From Verrucomicrobiota bacterium (lineage in GTDB: Bacteria; Verrucomicrobiota; Kiritimatiellia; CAIQIC01): a stretch of 64,000 nt of DNA. A model generated the notes under the pieces. It made no database searches and was not told where the DNA came from. It saw only the letters and a program-made list of their open reading frames with translations. Positions 3,361 to 51,177 of the stretch are shown in pieces. How positions within the stretch are numbered: the stretch's first letter is position 1; each line of letters starts with the position of its first letter. The DNA lies in NCBI GenBank assembly GCA_004321905.1, contig SCQF01000006.1:25410-89409 (forward strand). Direction: 5' to 3'. The translations under genes and the position numbers were made by a program.

Positions 3361-3411
3361 TTTCCAAGCCTTGGAAAAACTGCACTTTCACTTTTCCAAT
3401 CATTGGAAAAG
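3360..3411. repeat. paired palindromic element, pheS 5-prime region
   Basis: TTTTCCAAGCCTTGGAAAAA, 12-bp spacer, then CTTTTCCAATCATTGGAAAAG. It overlaps the pheS start codon. Confidence 0.8.
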
Positions 3412-3443: not shown

Positions 3444-4265
3444 TCACGCGGGCTTCGGCGCGCCGTTGGTCAGTTTGAGCGCGAGACATTCGTAGAGGAC
3501 GCGGTCGGGGGCGTAGGCAATGGTGTGGCGCGTGAGCACGCGATAGCCGACAGCATCGGCCTGGCTTTGCCGGGCGAGTTGCGTGGGCAAGTCGGCGGCG
3601 GTTTCCAACGCCATGACCAATTCGCGATCCTGCGCAAGGATCAATGGCGACTTGCCGGGCACCATGAGAACGGAAAGCGGCATAATCTGTGCCGGCCAGG
3701 CGACGCCGGCAATCGGCGCGGTGGGCACGGCGGCGACGGCGGCCTGCTTGGCTTCGATGCGCACCATGCGCGCACGCGCTTCGGGCGTATCGGTTTCGAG
3801 CGCGGCGGAAATCACGTCGAGCAGGCGGATGCGGACTTCGTTGAGGTCTTTGGCTTGCTCGATTTGCGGCAAGCCGCCGGCTTTGCCGATCACGCGGGCG
3901 AGTGCGGAGATTTCCTTGAGGTAGGCGTTCTTCTGCGCATCAGGGATGTAATACATCACGACGAGACGAACGGGTAGATTGTCGGGCGCGCCGTAGTCAA
4001 TGCCGGTGGGACTCCAGCCAACGGCACAGAGGAGCTCGCCTTCGGCGGCGGTGCGCGCATGCGGACAGGCCCAGCCCATCCCGAGCGCGGTGTTCGCGGC
4101 GCGCTCGCGCGCGAGCACGGACTCGACCACCTGCGTGCCGGCCTTGAGGCCAGGGATGGCTTCGATCAGGCTGCCAAGAATTTGCAGCGCCTTGTCCTTA
4201 TTATTCTCCGGCAGTTCGATCAACCGGCCTTCTTCCAGCGCAGACAACAGGGTCTTCATGGTCAA
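3444..4265 (-). CDS. PTS EIIA type-2 (PtsN-like) domain protein with C-terminal extension
   Basis: The N-terminal ~150 aa has an EIIA-2-like layout with a GMGWACPHAR active-site-like His. The C-terminal ~120 aa is unassigned. Confidence 0.5.
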   Translation of the reverse strand: MTMKTLLSALEEGRLIELPENNKDKALQILGSLIEAIPGLKAGTQVVESVLARERAANTALGMGWACPHARTAAEGELLCAVGWSPTGIDYGAPDNLPVRLVVMYYIPDAQKNAYLKEISALARVIGKAGGLPQIEQAKDLNEVRIRLLDVISAALETDTPEARARMVRIEAKQAAVAAVPTAPIAGVAWPAQIMPLSVLMVPGKSPLILAQDRELVMALETAADLPTQLARQSQADAVGYRVLTRHTIAYAPDRVLYECLALKLTNGAPKPA

Positions 4266-7007: not shown

Positions 7008-7057
7008 TTTTCCAAGGCTTGGAAAAATCAGCGTTTTACTTTTCCAAGCCTCGAAAA
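7008..7057. repeat. paired palindromic element, mgtA leader
   Basis: TTTTCCAAGGCTTGGAAAAA, 11-bp spacer, then CTTTTCCAAGCCTCGAAAA. Confidence 0.8.
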
Positions 7058-7269: not shown

Positions 7270-7345
7270 TGGCGCCCCTAACCGGATTCGAACCGATGTT
7301 CCCAGGATGAGAACCTGGTGTCCTAGGCCTCTAGACGATAAGGGC
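7270..7345 (-). tRNA. tRNA-Glu (anticodon CUC)
   Basis: Minus-strand sequence GCCCTTATCGTCTAGAGGCCTAGGACACCAGGTTCTCATCCTGGGAACATCGGTTCGAATCCGGTTAGGGGCGCCA folds as a cloverleaf. Acceptor stem GCCCTTA/TAGGGGC, anticodon stem CCAGG/CCTGG, loop TTCTCAT, T-loop GGTTCGAATCC, encoded CCA. Confidence 0.75.
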
Positions 7346-7405: not shown

Positions 7406-7458
7406 GTTTCCAAGCCTTGGAAAACCCGGCGCGCACTTTTTCCAAGGCTTGGAAAAAC
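7406..7458. repeat. paired palindromic element, upstream of priA
   Basis: GTTTCCAAGCCTTGGAAAAC, 10-bp spacer, then CTTTTTCCAAGGCTTGGAAAAAC. Confidence 0.8.
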
Positions 7459-34694: not shown

Positions 34695-34905
34695 AAAAAA
34701 CCCCGCCTTGCCGTCAAGGGCATTGTCTTCTGAACCTCGAATATCGAGGTGGGTGCTCTACCGCTGGTTAAGGCAAGCAATGCAGCTTGCCGCCGCCACC
34801 GGATGCCGAGCTCCCAATGGAGTTAACCATGTAGGGTCAGAAGAATCGGCCCCGTCACGCACAAGGCAGGGTATCTTCGCCCAGAAGCCGCAACTTCAGG
34901 GAGAA
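34695..34905 (-). ncRNA. candidate structured ncRNA (possibly 6S/SsrS-like); identity unproven
   Basis: In the 490-bp non-coding gap between rarA and pheT, a ~36-nt imperfect long-range helix (34702-34737 with 34838-34875) encloses two perfect local hairpins (CCTCGAATATCGAGG and GGCAAGCAATGCAGCTTGCC). An MTHFS gene lies downstream on the same strand, the classic ssrS-ygfA linkage. Confidence 0.3.
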
Positions 34906-39046: not shown

Positions 39047-39100
39047 TTTTCCAAGGCTTGGAAAATCAATCGGCTATCTTTTCCAACGCTTGGAAAAACC
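39047..39100. repeat. paired palindromic element, MATE / prepilin convergent intergenic
   Basis: CTTTTCCAAGGCTTGGAAAATC, 10-bp spacer, then TCTTTTCCAACGCTTGGAAAAACC. It lies immediately before the bidirectional terminator. Confidence 0.8.
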
Positions 39101-39717: not shown

Positions 39718-41091
39718 TCATTCCTCATCCAGAGGTATTTTGCGATAGAGCGTAGCTAGGCTGATTTTCAGGGCTTTGGCAGCTTTTTCCTTGTCGCCCC
39801 CCATCGAGCTGATGACCGAACCAAGATATTCTTGCTCTTTTTTGCGCAAAAACGATTTGAGCGATTTACCCCGGAAATCCTCAAAGGGCAGGGCGGGACC
39901 AACCGGAGTTGCGCCGTGGATTGATACATCGGCAATTTTAGCCGGCAAAACATCTTTGGTAATTTGATTGCTACCCGCGAACGTAAGCGCGTGCCGGATG
40001 GCATTTTCCAATTCACGCACATTGCCAGGCCACGGATAGGACTCCAAGATACGTTGCACATCCGGATCCAACGTGGGCAAGGGTTTATCTTTGCCCAGCT
40101 CACGCCGCAAGATGTGTTTGACCAGCGGCAAGACATCCTCCGGCCGTTCACGGAGCGGAGGAATTTGAATGGTGATTACGCTGAACCGGTAATACAAATC
40201 CTCGCGAAACCTTCCTTTCGCAATCAAATCCTCCAAACGGTCATTGGTCGCCGCCAACACACGCACATTGACCGGAATATTTTCCGTGCTGCCCACACGC
40301 CGTACTTCCTTGTCTTGTAATACACGCAGCAATTTGGCCTGAATGCTCAGCGGCATGGAGCCGATTTCGTCCAGAAAAATGGTGCCGCCGTTCGCCGCTT
40401 CAAATAACCCCTCTTTATTCACCGTGGCTCCGGTAAAAGCGCCTTTCACATGGCCAAACATTTCGGACTCCAGCAACGGCTCCGGCAGTGCGGCGCAATT
40501 GATCGGCAGGAAATTCTTGGTCTTGCGCGTACTATGCGCATGAATCGCTTTGGCCACCAATTCCTTGCCTGTTCCACTTTCCCCCAGCACCAACACCGTC
40601 GTATCGGTGGGGGCCACACGTTCAATCATTTCGCACACCTTGCGCATCCCCACGCTCTCGGCCACGATATTTTCAAACTGATAACGCCCCGCCAATTCCT
40701 CCTTCAACGCCACGTTTTCACTGAGCAGATTCTGGTATTGCAACGCCCGTTGCACCGTGATGAGCAATTCATCCACCTTGAACGGCTTGGTCACATAATC
40801 AAACGCGCCTTCCTTCATGGCTTCAACGGCCGTCTCCACCGTGCCATAGGCCGTCAACAAAATCACAGCCATGTTGGGATGCTCACGCCGCACCTGGCGC
40901 AGCAACTGCATACCATCCATCGCGCCCATGCGGATGTCGGAGATCAACAGATCAAATGACTGTTGTTGCATGAGGGCGAGGGCCGCTTCGCCGCTACGTG
41001 CGGGTGTCACTTCATGGCTTTGCGCTTTTAACAACGTCCCCAGCACGCTGAGAATACTGGGCTCATCGTCAACCACAAGAACTCGCGGCAT
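39718..41091 (-). CDS. sigma-54-dependent Fis-family response regulator (NtrC-like)
   Basis: Receiver domain (VLVVDDEPSI...DLLISDIRM), AAA+ sigma-54 interaction domain (GESGTGKE, GAFTGA, ESELFGH) and a C-terminal HTH. Confidence 0.85.
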   Translation of the reverse strand: MPRVLVVDDEPSILSVLGTLLKAQSHEVTPARSGEAALALMQQQSFDLLISDIRMGAMDGMQLLRQVRREHPNMAVILLTAYGTVETAVEAMKEGAFDYVTKPFKVDELLITVQRALQYQNLLSENVALKEELAGRYQFENIVAESVGMRKVCEMIERVAPTDTTVLVLGESGTGKELVAKAIHAHSTRKTKNFLPINCAALPEPLLESEMFGHVKGAFTGATVNKEGLFEAANGGTIFLDEIGSMPLSIQAKLLRVLQDKEVRRVGSTENIPVNVRVLAATNDRLEDLIAKGRFREDLYYRFSVITIQIPPLRERPEDVLPLVKHILRRELGKDKPLPTLDPDVQRILESYPWPGNVRELENAIRHALTFAGSNQITKDVLPAKIADVSIHGATPVGPALPFEDFRGKSLKSFLRKKEQEYLGSVISSMGGDKEKAAKALKISLATLYRKIPLDEE

Positions 41092-41183
41092 AGTTTTATC
41101 TTCCCCTTCGGTTACGTCCATCAGAACAAGAACAGGAGATTAAACCTTGTTCTCATTTTTTCAATCTTGATTTTTCTTCTGGC

Positions 41184-42221: not shown

Positions 42222-42729
42222 AGCCTTGCTCATGACGGCGAGCCTCGCGCTGGCCGCGACCCTGCTGCTACCCGGTTGCGCGGGTTATCGCCTCGGGTCC
42301 ATGTTGCCGCCGGACATCAAAACGGTGTACGTACCCGCCTTCATCAACAAAACGGCCGAACCACAAATCGAAATGGAGGCGACGCGTTCGGCGCTGGCGG
42401 AATTCCAGCGCGATGGCTCGTTGAAAATCGTCGCGGAAGAAGATGCCGACGCCACCTTGCAGGTCAAACTCACCGACTACCGTCTCACGCCACTGCAATA
42501 CGACAACTCGCGCCTGACGGCCGCCACCGAATATCGCATCACGCTCTACGCCTCCATCATGCTCACGCGCAAGAGCGACCGCAAAGTCATCGTCGAGCAC
42601 CCGCGTTGCTACGGCGAAAGCACGTTCCCCGTCATCGGCGACCTCTCTTCCTCCAAACGCGTCGGCCTGCCCAAAGCCGCGAAGGACCTCGCGCACGACA
42701 TCGTGCAAAAAGTCACCGAAGTCTGGTGA
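42208..42729 (+). CDS. LptE-like LPS-assembly lipoprotein
   Basis: Lipobox LLLPGCAGYRLG followed by ...IKTVYVPAFINKTAEPQIE..., the LptE pattern. Start likely MPAHKALLM. Confidence 0.45.
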   Translation: MPAHKALLMTASLALAATLLLPGCAGYRLGSMLPPDIKTVYVPAFINKTAEPQIEMEATRSALAEFQRDGSLKIVAEEDADATLQVKLTDYRLTPLQYDNSRLTAATEYRITLYASIMLTRKSDRKVIVEHPRCYGESTFPVIGDLSSSKRVGLPKAAKDLAHDIVQKVTEVW

Positions 42730-42740
42730 GACCGCAGAAG

Positions 42741-42793
42741 TTTTCCAAGGCTTGGAAAGGCTGATCGCTCGTTTTTCCAACCCTTGGAAAAAG
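42741..42793. repeat. paired palindromic element, LptE-like / hydG convergent intergenic
   Basis: TTTTCCAAGGCTTGGAAAGG, 10-bp spacer, then GTTTTTCCAACCCTTGGAAAAAG. Confidence 0.8.
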
Positions 42794-42797
42794 CTGT

Positions 42798-44360
42798 TCA
42801 AAAATACAAATCGCGCTCACCTTGGCAAATCCGTTCGTAGGATTTCATAAACTCGTCAAAGGCGCGCGGCATCTTCTGGCGAACTTCCTCAATTTCCTTT
42901 TTGAGGAGTGGCTCGCCGGCGGCGCGGGTCGCATCGCTGGCAAAATCGTCGAGCCATTCACGGAATGTCAAAATCGCGTTCAACTTGCAGAACTTGCCTT
43001 CCGCACCGCTACGCAGCAAATCCATGATGCAGTGGCCGGTGCGCCCGCAACGGTAGCCCGCCGTGCAAAAACTGGTGATGTTACCCATCGCCGCGAGGTC
43101 GCGAACGACCTCATCCAGCGTGCGCGTGTCGGCCAGCAAAAACTGCTGGCGGTCGCCGTGCTGTTCTTCATCCTGATAACCGCCGACGCCGATATTCGAG
43201 GACGCGTCCGTCTGCGTGCAGCCCAGCGGCAGCAGGCGCCGACGCATGCCGGGATTCTCACGACAGGTGACGATCATGCCGGCATAGGGCACGGCCAACC
43301 GCAGCACGACGACAACTTTCTCAAAATCTTCGTCGCTGACCTGCCAGCGTAACGACTCATTGAACGGCGTATTCGCCGCCGGCTCAAGCCGTGGAAAACT
43401 GACCGTATGCGGACCGATGCCGAGCGCACGCTCCAACTCCAGCGCATGCGCCACCAACCCCATGACCTCGAAGCGCCAGTCATAAAGTCCAAACAGTGCG
43501 CCGATGCCCACATCCTCAATACCCGCTTCCAACGCGCGGTGCATCGTGTAGAGCCGCCAGCGGTAGTCACTCTTGAGCGTGCCCGCCGGATGCACGGCAC
43601 GATAGGTCGCTTTATGATAGGTCTCTTGGAAAACCTGATAAGTCCCCACCCCGATCGCCGGCAGTTCGCGCAATTCCTCGGTCGGCATTGGTGCGGCGTT
43701 GATGTTGACGCGCCGAATTTGGCCGTGACCACGCCGCGCCGGCACCTTAACACCGTAGACCGCGCGAATGGACTCCTGCATATACTTCAAATCGCTGCGC
43801 GGATGTTCGCCATACACCACAATCAACCGCTTGTGGCCAATCTTACCGGCGAGCACCTCGGTCTCGGCGCGGATTTCGTCCATCGTCAACGTTCGCCGCT
43901 CCACCACGTCATTTTCGCAGCGCAGGCCACAATAGAGGCAGTTATTGACGCACGCGTTGCTCAAGTAAAGTGGCGCAAACGTGACGATGCGGTTGTCGTA
44001 TACCGTGTGCTTGATCTCCGCCGCCGCCTGCCGCATCTCGGCCCAGAGTTCCGGGTCTTTGACGGCCAACAGCGCCGCCGTTTCATCGAGGTCGAGCGAC
44101 TGGATCGCCTTGGCCTTCGCAATGATCTCACGAACTCGCGCCGCGTCTGGTTGCGCGGTCATCCGAATTTTGGAATCAATCAGCTCATCGTCAATAAAGT
44201 CGCGTCCGTTCTGCAGATACTTCTCCATCTGCTCCGGTACAATCCGGCGCTCCCGCCACTCATGAGCGCTCTGTTTCTCCACAATCGCCGTCATATTTCC
44301 GTGTCCTTCCGTGTGTTCCGTGGTTTCAAATTCAATTTTGTTGTGCACGCTCATAGGCAT
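42798..44360 (-). CDS. hydG: [FeFe]-hydrogenase maturase HydG (radical SAM tyrosine lyase)
   Basis: Radical-SAM CxxxCxxC (CVNNCLYCG) in a ThiH/HydG-like N-domain, plus a C-terminal Cys-rich extension (FCTAGYRCGRTGHC...FCK) absent from ThiH. Adjacent to hydF. The start is ambiguous (ATG at 44429, 44360 or 44294); 44360 is used here. Confidence 0.7.
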   Translation of the reverse strand: MPMSVHNKIEFETTEHTEGHGNMTAIVEKQSAHEWRERRIVPEQMEKYLQNGRDFIDDELIDSKIRMTAQPDAARVREIIAKAKAIQSLDLDETAALLAVKDPELWAEMRQAAAEIKHTVYDNRIVTFAPLYLSNACVNNCLYCGLRCENDVVERRTLTMDEIRAETEVLAGKIGHKRLIVVYGEHPRSDLKYMQESIRAVYGVKVPARRGHGQIRRVNINAAPMPTEELRELPAIGVGTYQVFQETYHKATYRAVHPAGTLKSDYRWRLYTMHRALEAGIEDVGIGALFGLYDWRFEVMGLVAHALELERALGIGPHTVSFPRLEPAANTPFNESLRWQVSDEDFEKVVVVLRLAVPYAGMIVTCRENPGMRRRLLPLGCTQTDASSNIGVGGYQDEEQHGDRQQFLLADTRTLDEVVRDLAAMGNITSFCTAGYRCGRTGHCIMDLLRSGAEGKFCKLNAILTFREWLDDFASDATRAAGEPLLKKEIEEVRQKMPRAFDEFMKSYERICQGERDLYF

Positions 44361-45582
44361 CGCGCGCCGCCGGAAACGGCGAAAGCGCCCGCTGGAGCAC
44401 GCCCTGCGTCGCCGAAATCGCCAGCCCATAGTTTGTGATCGCCACGCCCTGCGCCTGTGCGCGCTGAATGTGCGCGAGCATCTCGCGCCGCGTTAGCATG
44501 CACGAACCGCAGTGCACCACTAACTTGTAGCCGGTCAGGTCCTGCGGAAAATCGCGGCCCGCGCTCACGTCAATCTGTACGTCGAGGCCGGTGTATTGCC
44601 GCAGCCAGCGCGGAATTTTCACCCGCCCGATGTCATCCTCCAGCGCATGATGGCTGCACGACTCGGCCACGAGCACGCGGTCGCCCGCGCGTAGTCGGTC
44701 AATCATCGCCGCGCCACGCGCCAACTCCTGCAAGTCGCCCTTATAGCGCGCGAACAGGATCGAAAACGTGGTGCACTTCACATCGTTCGGTGTATCGGCG
44801 ACCATCTTCAGCACGACCTGCGAATCACAGACGACCAAATCCGGCGGGCAGTTCAGGCGACCGAGCAGCGCCGCATATTCGCGTTCCTTGACCACGAGCG
44901 CGGCGGCATCGCCATCGAGCGCGTCGCGGAGCGCCTGCACCTGTGGCAAAATCAGCCGGCCTTTTGGCGCCTGCAAATCAATCGGCACCACCATCACCAT
45001 CAGCCCACCCGGCGGCAACAGATCGGCGACCAGCGCCGGCGGATTCACATAATCATCCGGGCACGCCTTGAGCAGCAGTTCCTTGAACCGACAGACCACG
45101 CGCTCGCGCCGCGCCGCATCCAGACACGAACATTCCAGCCAGCCGGCGCACTTTTCCAAGGCCTGGAAAAAGGCCGGGACCGGTTTTCCAAGGCTTGGAA
45201 GATCGGTTTTGTTCACCACGACGATCACCGGCTGTTTGCGCTGCGCAGCCGCGGCCACGACGCGCTCCTCGAACTCGCCCCACTGGCCCGGCTCGGTCAG
45301 CAGCGCGACAATATCGGCGCGGTCGAGTGCGGCGGCCGTTTTTTGCAGGCGGCGTTCGGCCAATTCAGATTGGTCGTCAAGTCCAGCGGTGTCGAGGAAC
45401 GTCACCGGCCCGATAGGCAACAGCTCCATCGCTTTCTCGACTACATCGGTCGTCGTGCCCGGTACCGGCGAGGTCACCGCGACATCCTGCCCGGCAACGT
45501 AATTCAGGAAGCTGGACTTCCCGACGTTCGTCCGCCCGACGAGGCCAATTTGCAACCGCAAAGCTTTAGGCGTCGTCAGCAT
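44332..45582 (-). CDS. hydF: [FeFe]-hydrogenase maturation GTPase HydF
   Basis: N-terminal GTPase (GRTNVGKSSFLNYV, DTAGL, NKTD) and a C-terminal FeS-binding signature CxH...HCxxC (ESCSHH ... VVHCGSCML). An in-frame paired palindromic element at 45151-45204 encodes PSLGKPVPAFFQALEK. Confidence 0.8.
   Translation of the reverse strand: MLTTPKALRLQIGLVGRTNVGKSSFLNYVAGQDVAVTSPVPGTTTDVVEKAMELLPIGPVTFLDTAGLDDQSELAERRLQKTAAALDRADIVALLTEPGQWGEFEERVVAAAAQRKQPVIVVVNKTDLPSLGKPVPAFFQALEKCAGWLECSCLDAARRERVVCRFKELLLKACPDDYVNPPALVADLLPPGGLMVMVVPIDLQAPKGRLILPQVQALRDALDGDAAALVVKEREYAALLGRLNCPPDLVVCDSQVVLKMVADTPNDVKCTTFSILFARYKGDLQELARGAAMIDRLRAGDRVLVAESCSHHALEDDIGRVKIPRWLRQYTGLDVQIDVSAGRDFPQDLTGYKLVVHCGSCMLTRREMLAHIQRAQAQGVAITNYGLAISATQGVLQRALSPFPAARDAYERAQQN
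45151..45204. repeat. paired palindromic element inside hydF CDS
   Basis: CTTTTCCAAGGCCTGGAAAAAGG, 9-bp spacer, then GTTTTCCAAGGCTTGGAAGATC. In frame, where it encodes PSLGKPVPAFFQALEK between the GTPase and FeS domains. Confidence 0.8.
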
Positions 45583-46964
45583 CTTTCTTTTTCCCGATAG
45601 CCCAGCGCCGTCAGATTTTCCGGCGAGAGCGTCTGCTCCACAATGGCGCGGCCCAATTTCCCGATCAAAAATGCTCGCAAGTCGTTCCCACCGTCAGCAT
45701 TGAATTCGCCGAACCACCGCTGCGCCTGCTCGTAGCCGATGCGCGGCAGAAACGCATTGATTAACGCGCGGCTGTGATCGAGATGGCGGCGGCAGGCAGC
45801 GGCAGCGGCGGTGATGCCGGCCACATGCGACGCGAGCATTTCTGCCGCGTTCTTGAGCAACGCAATTTGATCGAGCAGCGACGCGGCCAGTAGCGGCAGG
45901 TACTCGTTGATCTGGAGTGTGCCGCTTGCGGCGACCTCGGCCACGAGTGCACCCGCGGCCCGGGCCTGCATGCCGGCCTGTACCGTGGCCTCGGCGATCA
46001 CCGGGTTGATCTTACCGGGCATGAGGCTTGAACCGGCCTGCACCGGCGGCAGGCGAATTTCGCCGAGCATGTGTAGCAGCCGCAAGTCACGCGCGATCTT
46101 GATGAAGTTCGCGGCACAGGCGTTCAGAATACCGGCAACCTCGGCAAAGCAATCGGCATTCGCGGTCGCATCCACTAGATTTTCCGCGCGCGTCAGACCG
46201 AGCCCGCTGACCTCGCGGAGTTTTTCGATGACGAGAAAGATATAACTACGCGACGCGGTCAGCCCGGTACCAAGGGCGGTGCCGCCAAGGTTGACCACGC
46301 GCAGGCGTTCCTCGGCCTTGAAGGTGCGCCAGCGGTCGCGCGCGAACGCCTCGGCGAAAGCGGAGAACTCCGCGCCCATCGTCATCGGCACCGCGTCCTG
46401 CATTTCCGTACGGCCCAATTTGACGATACCCGAAAATTCTTTTTCCTTTTTCTGAAATGCGCCCTGGAGCGTCGCCAGCGCTGCACTCAATTCACGCAGC
46501 CCGAAAATCGCTGCGACTTTGAGCGCGGTCGGATAAACGTCGTTCGTGGACTGGTGCAGATTGACATCCTCGATCGGATGCAATTTTGCGTAGTCGCCAC
46601 GCATCGCGCCCAACAGTTCCAGCGCGCGATTGGCGATGACCTCGTTGAGGTTCATGTTCGTCGAGGTGCCCGCCCCACCCTGCAAAGCGTCGAGCGGAAA
46701 TTGGTCGGCGTGCTGGCCGGCGACGATCTCGTCACACGCACGGCAGATCGCGTCACACTTTTCCAAACCTTGGAAACCGAGTTCGCGGTTGGCCAGTGCA
46801 CAGGCTTTCTTCACCTGCGCCAGCGCACGAACCAGCGCCGGCGATACCACGCGACCGCTAATCCGGAAGTTAGCCAGCGCTCGCGCGGTATGGATGCCGT
46901 AAAGCGCATCGGACGGTATGGCGAGTTCGCCCAATAAATCGTGTTCTGTGCGGAAATTAGCCAT
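45576..46964 (-). CDS. aspartate ammonia-lyase / class II fumarase family protein
   Basis: 462 aa with the GSSxMPxKxN lyase signature (GSSLMPGKINP). The N-terminus aligns with AspA. An in-frame single palindromic half-element lies at 46758-46779 (GFQGLEK). Confidence 0.8.
   Translation of the reverse strand: MANFRTEHDLLGELAIPSDALYGIHTARALANFRISGRVVSPALVRALAQVKKACALANRELGFQGLEKCDAICRACDEIVAGQHADQFPLDALQGGAGTSTNMNLNEVIANRALELLGAMRGDYAKLHPIEDVNLHQSTNDVYPTALKVAAIFGLRELSAALATLQGAFQKKEKEFSGIVKLGRTEMQDAVPMTMGAEFSAFAEAFARDRWRTFKAEERLRVVNLGGTALGTGLTASRSYIFLVIEKLREVSGLGLTRAENLVDATANADCFAEVAGILNACAANFIKIARDLRLLHMLGEIRLPPVQAGSSLMPGKINPVIAEATVQAGMQARAAGALVAEVAASGTLQINEYLPLLAASLLDQIALLKNAAEMLASHVAGITAAAAACRRHLDHSRALINAFLPRIGYEQAQRWFGEFNADGGNDLRAFLIGKLGRAIVEQTLSPENLTALGYREKERC
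46758..46779. repeat. single palindromic element inside AspA-like CDS
   Basis: CTTTTCCAAACCTTGGAAACCG. In frame, where it encodes GFQGLEK. Confidence 0.7.
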
Positions 46965-46965
46965 G

Positions 46966-47217
46966 TCATTTGCCTTTGCTCAACGCTGACTTGACCGAAA
47001 TGCCCGGCAATTTTCCGAGGCGACCAGTCAACTCGCCGACTTGGTCGGTGGTGGCGTCCACGATCAGCGTAATAACACAGCAGTGCTTGCTCTCGTAAGG
47101 AATGCCGGTGCGCGCAACGATGCAAGCGCCGAACGTCGTCAGCACTTCGTTCACCAGCGGCGCCGCACGCTGCCGATCCTCAATAATGATACCTACAAAG
47201 CCCAGTCGCTTGTCCAT
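46966..47217 (-). CDS. TM1266-like small ACT-fold protein (putative iron-only hydrogenase system regulator)
   Basis: An 84-aa product from MDKRLGFVGIIIEDRQ... In size, pattern and position next to hydG/hydF it matches the TM1266 family. The longer track ORF (139 aa) is probably over-extended. Confidence 0.45.
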   Translation of the reverse strand: MDKRLGFVGIIIEDRQRAAPLVNEVLTTFGACIVARTGIPYESKHCCVITLIVDATTDQVGELTGRLGKLPGISVKSALSKGK

Positions 47218-47384
47218 AGTCCATCTCCACAAAATAAAAACCCCACCGCCAAAAGCGATGGGGCTGCCGGAACCGCGACGGCCTTGTTCGCCCTTGGCTG
47301 CAGAGCCATCGCTCCTGACCGCAGGTCGGAAGATATGTAGCAAAATTCGCTGTGGGCGGCAATCGCCCGTAGGAACAAAGACCA

Positions 47385-48071
47385 TTAGACCAAGCTGAGC
47401 ATCAGTTGCATCAGCGCTTGTGATGCGGCCGAGCGGCCTTCATCCATACGCTCGGGATGCCACTGCACGGCGATGATCGGGGAGGCGACGCCCTCGCCTT
47501 CCACCACCGCCTCCGGGATGCCTGCGGGTGATTGGGCCGCTACGCGCAAACCACGACCAATATGCTTGGGATCGGCGGCTTGATGGTGATGGCTGTTGAC
47601 CTCCGTCACACCGCGCAGGGCTTGGCCGAGCCGCGTACGCCCAGTCCACTTGATTTTGTGAATGGCATCGCCGCTCGGCGGAGAATGAACTTCCTTGCCC
47701 CCGTTTTTCTTCAGCCAATCCGGCACGTGCTGAATGAGCTTGCCACCCATGGCCACATTCAAAAACTGGATGCCGCGGCAGATACCGAAGACCGGTCGCC
47801 CCATGGCCAGGAATTTTTCGATGAGCTTGCCTTCCAGCGCGTCGCGTTGCGGTAGGATGTCGCCGGTCTTGGCATGCGGCTTCGCGCCGTAGCACGCGGG
47901 GTCCACGTCACCACCACCGGTGAGCAGCAGTGCGCGGAAGGCGCCAAAGTGTTCCGGTAATTCGTCATCTGGCCCTACAAAAACAGGTTCAACACCATTG
48001 GCCCGCAGCCAGCGGTCATAGGTTTCCGGCACGTCATAGTCCACCAACGTTTTTGTCGCCAACCATTTCAT
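47385..48071 (-). CDS. class I glutamine amidotransferase-like (gamma-glutamyl hydrolase / peptidase C26 family)
   Basis: GICRGIQFLNVAMGG contains the catalytic Cys, and ...VQWHPE... the His/Glu. Confidence 0.65.
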   Translation of the reverse strand: MKWLATKTLVDYDVPETYDRWLRANGVEPVFVGPDDELPEHFGAFRALLLTGGGDVDPACYGAKPHAKTGDILPQRDALEGKLIEKFLAMGRPVFGICRGIQFLNVAMGGKLIQHVPDWLKKNGGKEVHSPPSGDAIHKIKWTGRTRLGQALRGVTEVNSHHHQAADPKHIGRGLRVAAQSPAGIPEAVVEGEGVASPIIAVQWHPERMDEGRSAASQALMQLMLSLV

Positions 48072-51122: not shown

Positions 51123-51177
51123 CTTTTTCCAAACCTTGGAAACGGTTACGCGGTTGTTTTCCAAGCCTTGGAAAAGC
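51123..51177. repeat. paired palindromic element between rpsM and rpsK (intra-operon)
   Basis: CTTTTTCCAAACCTTGGAAACGG, 10-bp spacer, then GTTTTCCAAGCCTTGGAAAAGC. Confidence 0.8.

Follow-up and report, generated by a model that had tools for sequence, protein, structure and literature searches.

What an aspartase-like gene does among the maturases of an [FeFe]-hydrogenase, and how such a set of genes may be switched, are the questions raised by a cluster of four genes in a 64-kb stretch of DNA from a Verrucomicrobiota bacterium (contig SCQF01000006.1, positions 25,410 to 89,409), hereafter called the window. The minus strand carries all four genes, in the transcription order TM1266-like, AspA-like, HydF, HydG. 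A preliminary description made from the sequence had named the cluster hydG-hydF-(AspA-like)-(TM1266-like); the four genes, their coordinates and their shared strand hold, while the direction is reversed, with the TM1266 gene first and hydG last. The cassette is read here as a compact, separately transcribed operon for the cofactor of [FeFe]-hydrogenase, in which a hyd-specific aspartase would supply ammonium and a leader RNA would attenuate transcription, with the TM1266-like protein as its likeliest stabiliser. This reading, taken as a whole, is considered moderately probable. Its added value beyond the published aspA model is the AspA clade signature, a cysteine variant of HydG, a family of paired palindromes, and, above all, the TM1266-associated leader RNA.

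The gene identities were judged against the curated cut-offs of NCBIfam, with which Pfam agrees, and an independent gene call on the identical contig gave the same four proteins at the lengths listed in Table 1. The genes are tightly packed, with a 1-nt gap between the TM1266 stop and the aspA start, a 7-nt overlap of aspA and hydF, and a hydF-hydG spacing of 37 nt. The same four-gene cassette is found in differing genomic surroundings in related loci (L082, L163, L165, and L182).

A leader RNA ahead of the TM1266-like genes

The TM1266-like gene is separated from the stop of a C26-type amidotransferase gene (47385) by a short intergenic region with a terminator hairpin only about 20 nt ahead of the ribosome-binding site of the TM1266 start (47217). 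The last 115 nt before this start are approximately 93% identical to those of L082, and the sequence further upstream is unrelated. The hairpin at 47265-47239 was considered as a mere terminator of the rpoA-rplQ-C26 unit and rejected, since L082, L163, and L165 have this leader behind a divergently oriented gene; it therefore belongs to the cassette's own leader. A promoter-like region is predicted just upstream of the leader (Table 1). It was absent from the output of a simple promoter scan of the window, and it aligns with better sigma-70 hexamers in L082 (TTGAAC/TATAAT) and L163 (TTGATT/TATAGT), where the upstream gene is divergent.

Upstream of TM1266-like genes in other phyla, a shared core with the consensus (N)CCUG-M-GG-N2-3-A-[hairpin]-G-N-A-N-CC-AAGGG is found, followed by a strong terminator each time. 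The covariance model R1, built from eight leader sequences, gives the window motif a score of 56.6 bits (E about 1e-10) and found further instances of the motif in L003 and L170. In the approximately 2.3 Mb compared, all its matches at E < 1e-3 lie directly upstream of TM1266-like genes, and no other match was found at E < 0.01. Two further TM1266 lineages, fetched via the protein and thus out of sample, both have the motif, and one of them consists of 'Ca. Hakubella' cassettes, which have no aspA. Among 53 non-redundant hyd loci, TM1266 and the motif occur together in 13 and TM1266 alone in four, and the 36 loci that lack TM1266 have no motif (0/36), in a sample that is biased, all its loci having been fetched through AspA or TM1266.

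The architecture of this element is supported by the alignment of 13 sequences, in which 89.5% of cells are paired compared with 28-58% when the partners are slid; the covariation score was reached by 0 of 500 shuffles, and RNAalifold independently predicts the same architecture. All 13 instances of the motif are followed by a terminator, and in most of them the motif's 3' strand (CCAAGGG...) can pair with the terminator's 5' arm, over 11 bp in the window and over 10 bp without a mismatch in L017. The alternative anti-terminator pairing in the window joins 47298-47288 with 47258-47248. A covarying conserved element, an intrinsic terminator, and a mutually exclusive pairing of the two, as expected of an attenuator or a riboswitch, are thus all found here, and the leader looks like an off-type attenuator on these structural features. 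The motif, a stem-loop of about 50 nt at the predicted transcript start, would compete with the anti-terminator for CCAAGGGCG. Since folding of the motif and anti-termination exclude each other, stabilisation of the motif should allow the downstream intrinsic terminator to form and switch the operon off.

None of the 4227 families of Rfam 15 reaches its gathering score at the leader site. A permissive Rfam search of the leader gave only two chance-level matches to small RNAs (E = 0.22 and 5.7), and a search of five related leaders gave nothing at E <= 0.1. Known riboswitches (glycine, guanidine-III, glutamine, and others) were set aside as candidates for lack of an Rfam match. A leader peptide was likewise rejected, as the AUG that follows AGGAG in the P2 loop of the window is not conserved in the other instances. 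No description of this leader RNA was found in the literature searched.

The gene behind the leader encodes a small ACT-related protein, as the preliminary description had proposed. It scores 96 bits against TIGR03959 (cut-off 61), matches PF21699, and, with its 83 residues and its hyd neighbourhood, is assigned to the TM1266 family. Its fold is ferredoxin-like (beta-alpha-beta-beta-alpha-beta), and structurally it is closest to TM1266 of T. maritima (2NZC), to the ligand-binding C-terminal domain of NikR, and to regulatory domains of the ACT type. No DNA-binding domain is present; the ribbon-helix-helix of NikR is missing. Metal ligands of the NikR type were considered and rejected: T. maritima TM1266 lacks the H-C-C triplet that this protein has at residues 45-47, and the nickel ligands of NikR are not conserved between the two proteins. 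The family members are mildly basic, with a median isoelectric point of 8.9. To our knowledge, no function has been shown for any member of the family, which is named 'putative iron-only hydrogenase system regulator' and whose structure was solved in 2006.

The TM1266-like protein, a putative ligand-sensing domain of the ACT/NikR-C type, is the likeliest candidate for the stabiliser of the motif, as it could act as an autoregulatory RNA-binding attenuation protein; it is favoured because the motif occurs only before TM1266-like genes. TRAP, PyrR, and HutP are RNA-binding attenuation proteins. The leader resembles their systems, and off-type riboswitches, in a conserved 5' element that excludes an anti-terminator and in an intrinsic terminator placed just before the ribosome-binding site of the first gene; unlike them, it matches no Rfam 15 family, and the fold of its candidate partner is not one known for RNA binding. 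The predicted motif and terminator would then make up an undescribed attenuation system for H-cluster maturases with TM1266 as the RNA-binding partner or, if the RNA acts alone, a new class of riboswitch, a proposal to which roughly equal weight is given for and against.

It is also possible, on the doubtful side, that the leader works on its own as a new class of small-molecule riboswitch, whose ligand would be a metabolite with a bearing on maturation, such as an amino-acid substrate, a nucleotide, an iron species, or ammonium or a similar cation, and that TM1266 is merely the first regulated gene. The layout is that of a classical transcriptional off-riboswitch, with a conserved core of 35-40 nt, invariant unpaired purines, a covarying hairpin, and the mutually exclusive anti-terminator and intrinsic terminator, all located where the transcript is predicted to begin and recurring in several phyla. 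A metabolite sensor would be expected to spread within its pathway, however, and the motif precedes no other gene in the approximately 2.3 Mb compared; it is also missing before all 36 hyd cassettes that lack TM1266 and have the same enzymes, within the bias of the sample described above. The attenuation system with a TM1266 partner, for its part, has several observations against it. We know of no ACT or NikR-C domain that binds RNA, and the joint inheritance of a riboswitch and TM1266 as one module would give the same co-occurrence. The core is mostly invariant, so that the signal of covariation comes from just two pairs of P2 and two outer pairs of P1 in 13 sequences. In addition, four TM1266 loci (L001, L021, L053, and L084) have no significant match to the model; one has an internal TM1266, two are of the Firmicutes type, and one has a variant visible by eye. 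The coupling of TM1266 and leader nevertheless gives a concrete hypothesis for a family that lacks an assigned function, and the leader suggests that expression of the maturases is regulated, a point that bears on the heterologous production of [FeFe]-hydrogenases.

At the Firmicutes-type loci L053 (626-671) and L021, terminators lie upstream of TM1266, and the resemblance to the motif is only weak. The look-alike in L053 scores 11.8 bits, and both strands of its GG/CC helix seem by eye to have changed in a compensatory way; such loci may have a diverged form of the leader. In L182 (about 3850-3980), a short tandem repeat of GGAUAUUGGAUAUCGGAUUU-like units fills the stretch from the leader terminator to the TM1266 start.

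An AspA clade beside hydF and the split of the maturation genes

The use of AspA as the ammonia source of the azadithiolate (DTMA) bridge is a published model (Pagnier et al., J Biol Chem 2024, PMC11736057). An ammonia-lyase gene lies within 20 open reading frames (ORFs) of 79% of authentic hydF genes, aspA nearly always adjoins hydF, and E. coli AspA supplied with 15N-aspartate gave labelled DTMA nitrogen in a defined in vitro maturation (PMC11736057). In Pelobacter carbinolicus, an aspA flanked by hydG and hydF had already been described (Aklujkar et al., 2012, PMC3543383). The suggestion of the preliminary description that the embedded lyase provides the ammonia for azadithiolate is supported by the published linkage and the 15N assay with E. 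coli AspA, together with the hyd-specific clade predicted here; the idea of an aspartase as nitrogen donor is thus supported but not new. The cassette of the window resembles the published hyd operons with aspA, including the hndD2 cluster of P. carbinolicus, in having hydF, hydG, and an AspA-family gene directly beside hydF, for which the proposed role is to provide ammonium for DTMA. Unlike them, it has neither hydE nor hydA, and it begins with a conserved leader RNA and TM1266. The published analysis was based on Pfam domains and on E. coli AspA, and it separated no hyd-specific AspA clade or signature.

The gene embedded between TM1266 and hydF encodes a full-length lyase of the AspA family, as had been proposed; it scores 540 bits against the subfamily model NF008909 (cut-off 510), matches PF00206, and has aspartases as its best PDB matches. 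Loci were fetched through an alignment of close homologues, at least 80 of them from one-genome-per-species contigs and at least 80 metagenomic. No AspA relative of at least 80% identity was among the matches listed, and the closest ones came from exact-protein look-ups. A neighbour-joining tree of the genome-set loci listed, to which the following counts refer, splits 52 housekeeping AspA from 28 other loci, and hydF or hydG lies within 10 kb of 24 of the latter 28 compared with none of the 52. Two of the four unlinked loci (L016 and L023) are on short or cut contigs. In a metagenome replicate, 15 of the 17 top-scoring loci listed were hyd-linked, the two exceptions being contigs of <5 kb. 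Further clade members obtained by exact-protein look-ups always have hydF directly after aspA, even where hydG, hydE, or TM1266 is missing, and the constant core of these cassettes is the adjacency of aspA and hydF. The survey and phylogeny thus answer the question of whether this lyase is a housekeeping copy: in the loci compared, the hyd-linked AspA forms a clade of its own, apart from the housekeeping enzymes and specific to the neighbourhood of hyd genes.

The protein shares its fold and family, and approximately 45-50% identity, with housekeeping enzymes such as AspA of E. coli (1JSW) and AspB of Bacillus sp. YM55-1 (1J3U, 3R6V). The residues of AspB that we take to bind substrate or act in catalysis (T101, S140, T141, N142, T187, S318, S319, K324, and N326) have their counterparts in the kept residues T100, S101, S139, T140, N141, T186, S312, S313, K318, and N320, and these positions show no variation in any of the 28 hyd-linked or 52 housekeeping sequences. 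The signature of the SS loop, GSSxMPGKxN, is also intact. Because the aspartate-binding and catalytic residues and the SS loop are all kept, the hyd-linked AspA is very probably still an aspartase, dedicated and distinct. Unlike AspA and AspB, it has a shortened SGPR loop ahead of the SS loop, from which five residues are deleted in the sub-clade of the window; this deletion of the SGPRxG loop is found in 118 of the 120 closest AspA homologues. The Arg of this loop is present in 48 of the 52 housekeeping sequences and in one of the 28 hyd-linked ones. The clade also departs from housekeeping AspA at about a dozen further positions whose conservation in the latter is at least 85%; the clade-specific changes include Y21L, Q199A/R, the replacement of SGPR Arg/N/E/Q by other residues, E to L, and G to A. 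Such a signature lets annotators separate the hyd-linked from the housekeeping enzyme, and the lineage offers an enzyme for maturation assays in place of E. coli AspA.

HydF, for which the preliminary description had named a GTPase with a CxH...HCxxC motif, is borne out at 506 bits against TIGR03918 (cut-off 326), with the GTPase, dimerisation, and tetramerisation domains (PF01926, PF18128, and PF18133) and all motifs located. The GTPase motifs are G1 GRTNVGKS at 16-23, DTAG at 64-67, and NKTD at 124-127, and the cluster motif is formed by CSH (309-311) and HCGSC (357-361); its two His are separated by 45 residues, next to a published review range of 46-53. HydG would, as is established for its family, make the Fe(CO)2(CN) synthon from tyrosine, and HydF would be the scaffold GTPase that carries the 2Fe subcluster while it and its azadithiolate bridge are completed. 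The AspA-like enzyme, translationally coupled to hydF, could split aspartate into fumarate and ammonium near HydF, and this ammonium may enter the bridge via the aminomethyl-lipoyl H-protein route of the published model.

Neither hydE nor hydA was found in the 64-kb window in a search with NCBIfam-verified HydE and HydA proteins of related loci, whose sole match was the weak paralogy of HydE to HydG, and no H-cluster motif is present in any frame of the window. The earlier statement that neither gene is nearby is accordingly true of the whole window. In the closest relatives (L082, L163, and L165), hydE and hydA were not found within 4-10 kb of the cassette either, and at most other related loci, hydE, often together with hydA, adjoins it. 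Since the closest relatives share the arrangement in different surroundings, the split of the cassette from hydE and hydA is a stable trait of the lineage and not a truncation, and the two genes are presumably encoded elsewhere in the genome.

This split could be read as the mark of an incomplete remnant, which would account for the missing hydE and hydA here and in the three relatives. Such a reading is highly improbable, as all four ORFs are intact with each functional motif in place, the cassette and its leader are kept between genomes whose AspA are 81-86% identical and whose surroundings differ, and separate hydE loci occur elsewhere, P. carbinolicus having three hydE copies apart from hydF and hydG (PMC3543383). 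The lyase itself might serve energy metabolism, feeding aspartate carbon into an H2-linked fermentation or providing fumarate as an electron sink. A catabolic role was indeed proposed for the aspA between hydG and hydF (Aklujkar et al., 2012, PMC3543383), fumarate was called a useful by-product by Pagnier et al. (PMC11736057), and the catalytic residues are all standard aspartase ones. We regard this role as quite unlikely, since the clade nearly always adjoins hydF, often with overlapping stop and start, and never stands in a housekeeping context among the loci listed, which is unexpected of a catabolic enzyme, and its adjacency to hydF persists where hydA, hydE, and hydG are missing from the neighbourhood. 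Somewhat less remote, if still unlikely, is an enzyme that is no longer a simple aspartase, either with a changed substrate or as a HydF-bound partner that delivers nitrogen directly. The clade-specific differences at conserved housekeeping positions, the loop deletion, the tight coupling of aspA and hydF, and a score below the cut-off of the aspA equivalog model speak for it, whereas the invariance of the known AspB residues in all 28 hyd-linked sequences and the intact SS loop speak against it.

The preferred reading, an aspartase that would supply ammonium for the bridge, has its own difficulties. The protein stays under the cut-off of TIGR00839, the aspA equivalog (429 vs. 681 bits), and with the near-invariant SGPR Arg lost in the clade and five loop residues gone here, activity or regulation may differ. 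The aspartase of the published maturation assay was the housekeeping AspA of E. coli and not a hyd-linked one, and many organisms that contain hydF have no aspA (PMC11736057). The Ca. Hakubella locus (L186) has the order TM1266-hydF-hydG-hydE and likewise no aspA. Since these organisms do without the gene, AspA is dispensable for maturation. A complete pathway in the window's genome, moreover, would depend on hydE and hydA genes outside the window.

HydG with a relocated cysteine

The assignment of HydG is upheld by a full-length profile match, with 449 bits against TIGR03955 (cut-off 312) over profile positions 7-470 of 470, and by alignments to PDB 4WCX (E = 2e-123) and 4RTB (E = 1e-94). The ORF of 543 residues is over-extended; the likely start is at 44294, giving 498 residues. 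The protein is like the canonical HydG of T. italicus (4WCX) and C. hydrogenoformans (4RTB) in its radical-SAM CX3CX2C motif (CVNNCLYC, residues 115-122), its TIM-barrel/BATS domains, and its C-terminal cluster domain, and it has a His that aligns with the histidine of the dangler iron. The C-terminal Cys-rich extension noted in the preliminary description is present, in a non-canonical form.

The auxiliary-cluster motif of HydG is a C-terminal CX2CX22C, and both solved HydGs read C-T-A-C at its start. In place of this motif, the window protein has C410-X5-C416-X5-C422-X13-C436, with C410-TAGYR-C416 (window site 42987-43067, residues 410-436). Its C-terminus reads FCTAGYRCGRTGHCIM...FCKLN, compared with FCTACYRxGRTGxxFM...FCxPN in the solved proteins. 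In the alignments with 4WCX and 4RTB, CTAC has become CTAG, the second Cys of CX2C being Gly here and Ala in one relative, and a new Cys stands three residues on; a further Cys replaces the residue before the conserved hydrophobic-Met pair. Three C-terminal Cys remain available in the variant.

Among the fetched loci, the CX5C variant is found in eight distinct HydGs of several phyla, next to 20 canonical ones, and thus marks a subfamily in at least eight cassettes. These HydGs sit in cassettes with the loop-deleted AspA, L170 not having been checked for this. Because the variant is conserved in eight cassettes, the relocation of the Cys is, on sequence grounds, a feature of a subfamily and not a defect. 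The subfamily provides a natural variant of the site that builds the Fe(CO)2(CN) synthon. A literature search for HydG with 'CX2CX22C' gave no match.

Coordinates, paired palindromes, and surroundings

The coordinates of the cassette, its leader, and the paired palindromes are collected in Table 1.

Table 1. Features of the cassette, its predicted leader, and the paired palindromes, in window positions.
Feature	Position	Strand	Details
Promoter-like region (predicted)	47334..47362	-	-35-like TTGCCG 47362-47357; -10-like TACATA 47339-47334
Conserved leader RNA motif, aptamer-like core	47284..47334	-	CCUGCGG 47325-47319; P2 hairpin GGAGC/GCUCU 47315-47302; GCCAAGGGCGA 47298-47288
Intrinsic terminator of the leader	47230..47265	-	12-bp stem 47265-47239 and U-run to 47230; terminator scan, folds
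TM1266-like small protein, 83 residues, leading gene of the cassette	46966..47217	-	ribosome-binding site GGAG at 47228-47225
Hyd-linked AspA-like lyase, 462 residues	45576..46964	-	NF008909, PF00206
HydF GTPase scaffold, 416 residues	44332..45582	-	TIGR03918; PF18133, PF18128, PF01926
HydG radical-SAM tyrosine lyase, 498 residues	42798..44294	-	TIGR03955
Paired 17-nt palindrome TTTCCAAGSCTTGGAAA in frame inside hydF, two units 32 nt apart	45153..45201		encodes about residues 127-143, LPSLGKPVPAFFQALEK
Paired palindrome copy directly 3' of the hydG stop	42742..42790		
Further paired copies	3361-3409, 7009-7057, 7407-7455, 39048-39096, 51126-51174		

The in-frame palindromic element that had been noted in hydF is real and is a copy of a dispersed, lineage-specific repeat family. 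The pattern TTTCCAAGSCTTGGAAA has 38 matches in the window (0.16 expected), 14 of which form pairs at exactly 32-nt spacing with non-conserved spacers, and most of the matches lie at gene boundaries, in many cases directly ahead of a start codon. A single in-frame 17-nt palindrome also lies inside the AspA-like coding sequence (46760-46776). The family is dense in the closest relatives, for instance with 13 matches in 21 kb of L082, and nearly absent elsewhere, with 17 matches in 2.1 Mb; it is dense only in the window, L082, and L163. In the latter two, a pair occupies the same site of hydF, and the palindromes are preserved while the spacer changes non-synonymously (VPA, DAA, and GTT). Because the palindromes are preserved while the spacer residues change, selection or homogenisation seems to act on the hydF palindrome as DNA or RNA and not on the encoded protein. 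A hydF-specific RNA structure was considered and rejected, as the fold has a z of only -2.4 and the element is genome-wide. The family resembles repetitive extragenic palindromic sequences and bacterial interspersed mosaic elements (REP/BIME) in being made of short imperfect palindromes of high copy number, mostly at gene boundaries, often paired, and lineage-specific. Unlike these, it has two 17-nt units at a fixed centre-to-centre spacing of 32 nt with a non-conserved spacer, and some copies are intragenic and in frame, as in hydF, and conserved there between related genomes.

Upstream of the cassette lie the genes for a C26-type amidotransferase, rplQ, and rpoA, and downstream of it lie lptE and a BamD-like gene, which are convergent; lptE, identified by a Pfam LptE match, ends at 42729. 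A 177-residue ORF downstream of hydG (42268-42801) was discarded, as it has no family match and overlaps the real lptE on the opposite strand. The Peptidase_C26/class-I glutamine amidotransferase gene (47385-48071, minus strand) is directly upstream of the cassette, and it is also found within a few kb of the cassette in L082, L163, and L165, with a divergent AP-endonuclease-type gene between them. It was weighed as a second ammonia source of the operon and rejected, the promoter-like region and the leader intervening here and the divergent gene intervening in the relatives; its place beside the cassette looks like lineage synteny and not operon membership. A sigma-54-dependent response regulator gene of the NtrC/AtoC-like type (39718-41121, minus strand) lies about 1.7 kb past the 3' end of the cassette, beyond lptE and the BamD-like gene. 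Matches to Rfam at the gathering threshold are a 6S RNA (RF00013, 85 bits) at 34696-34875 and a tRNA gene at 7273-7345, both on the minus strand.

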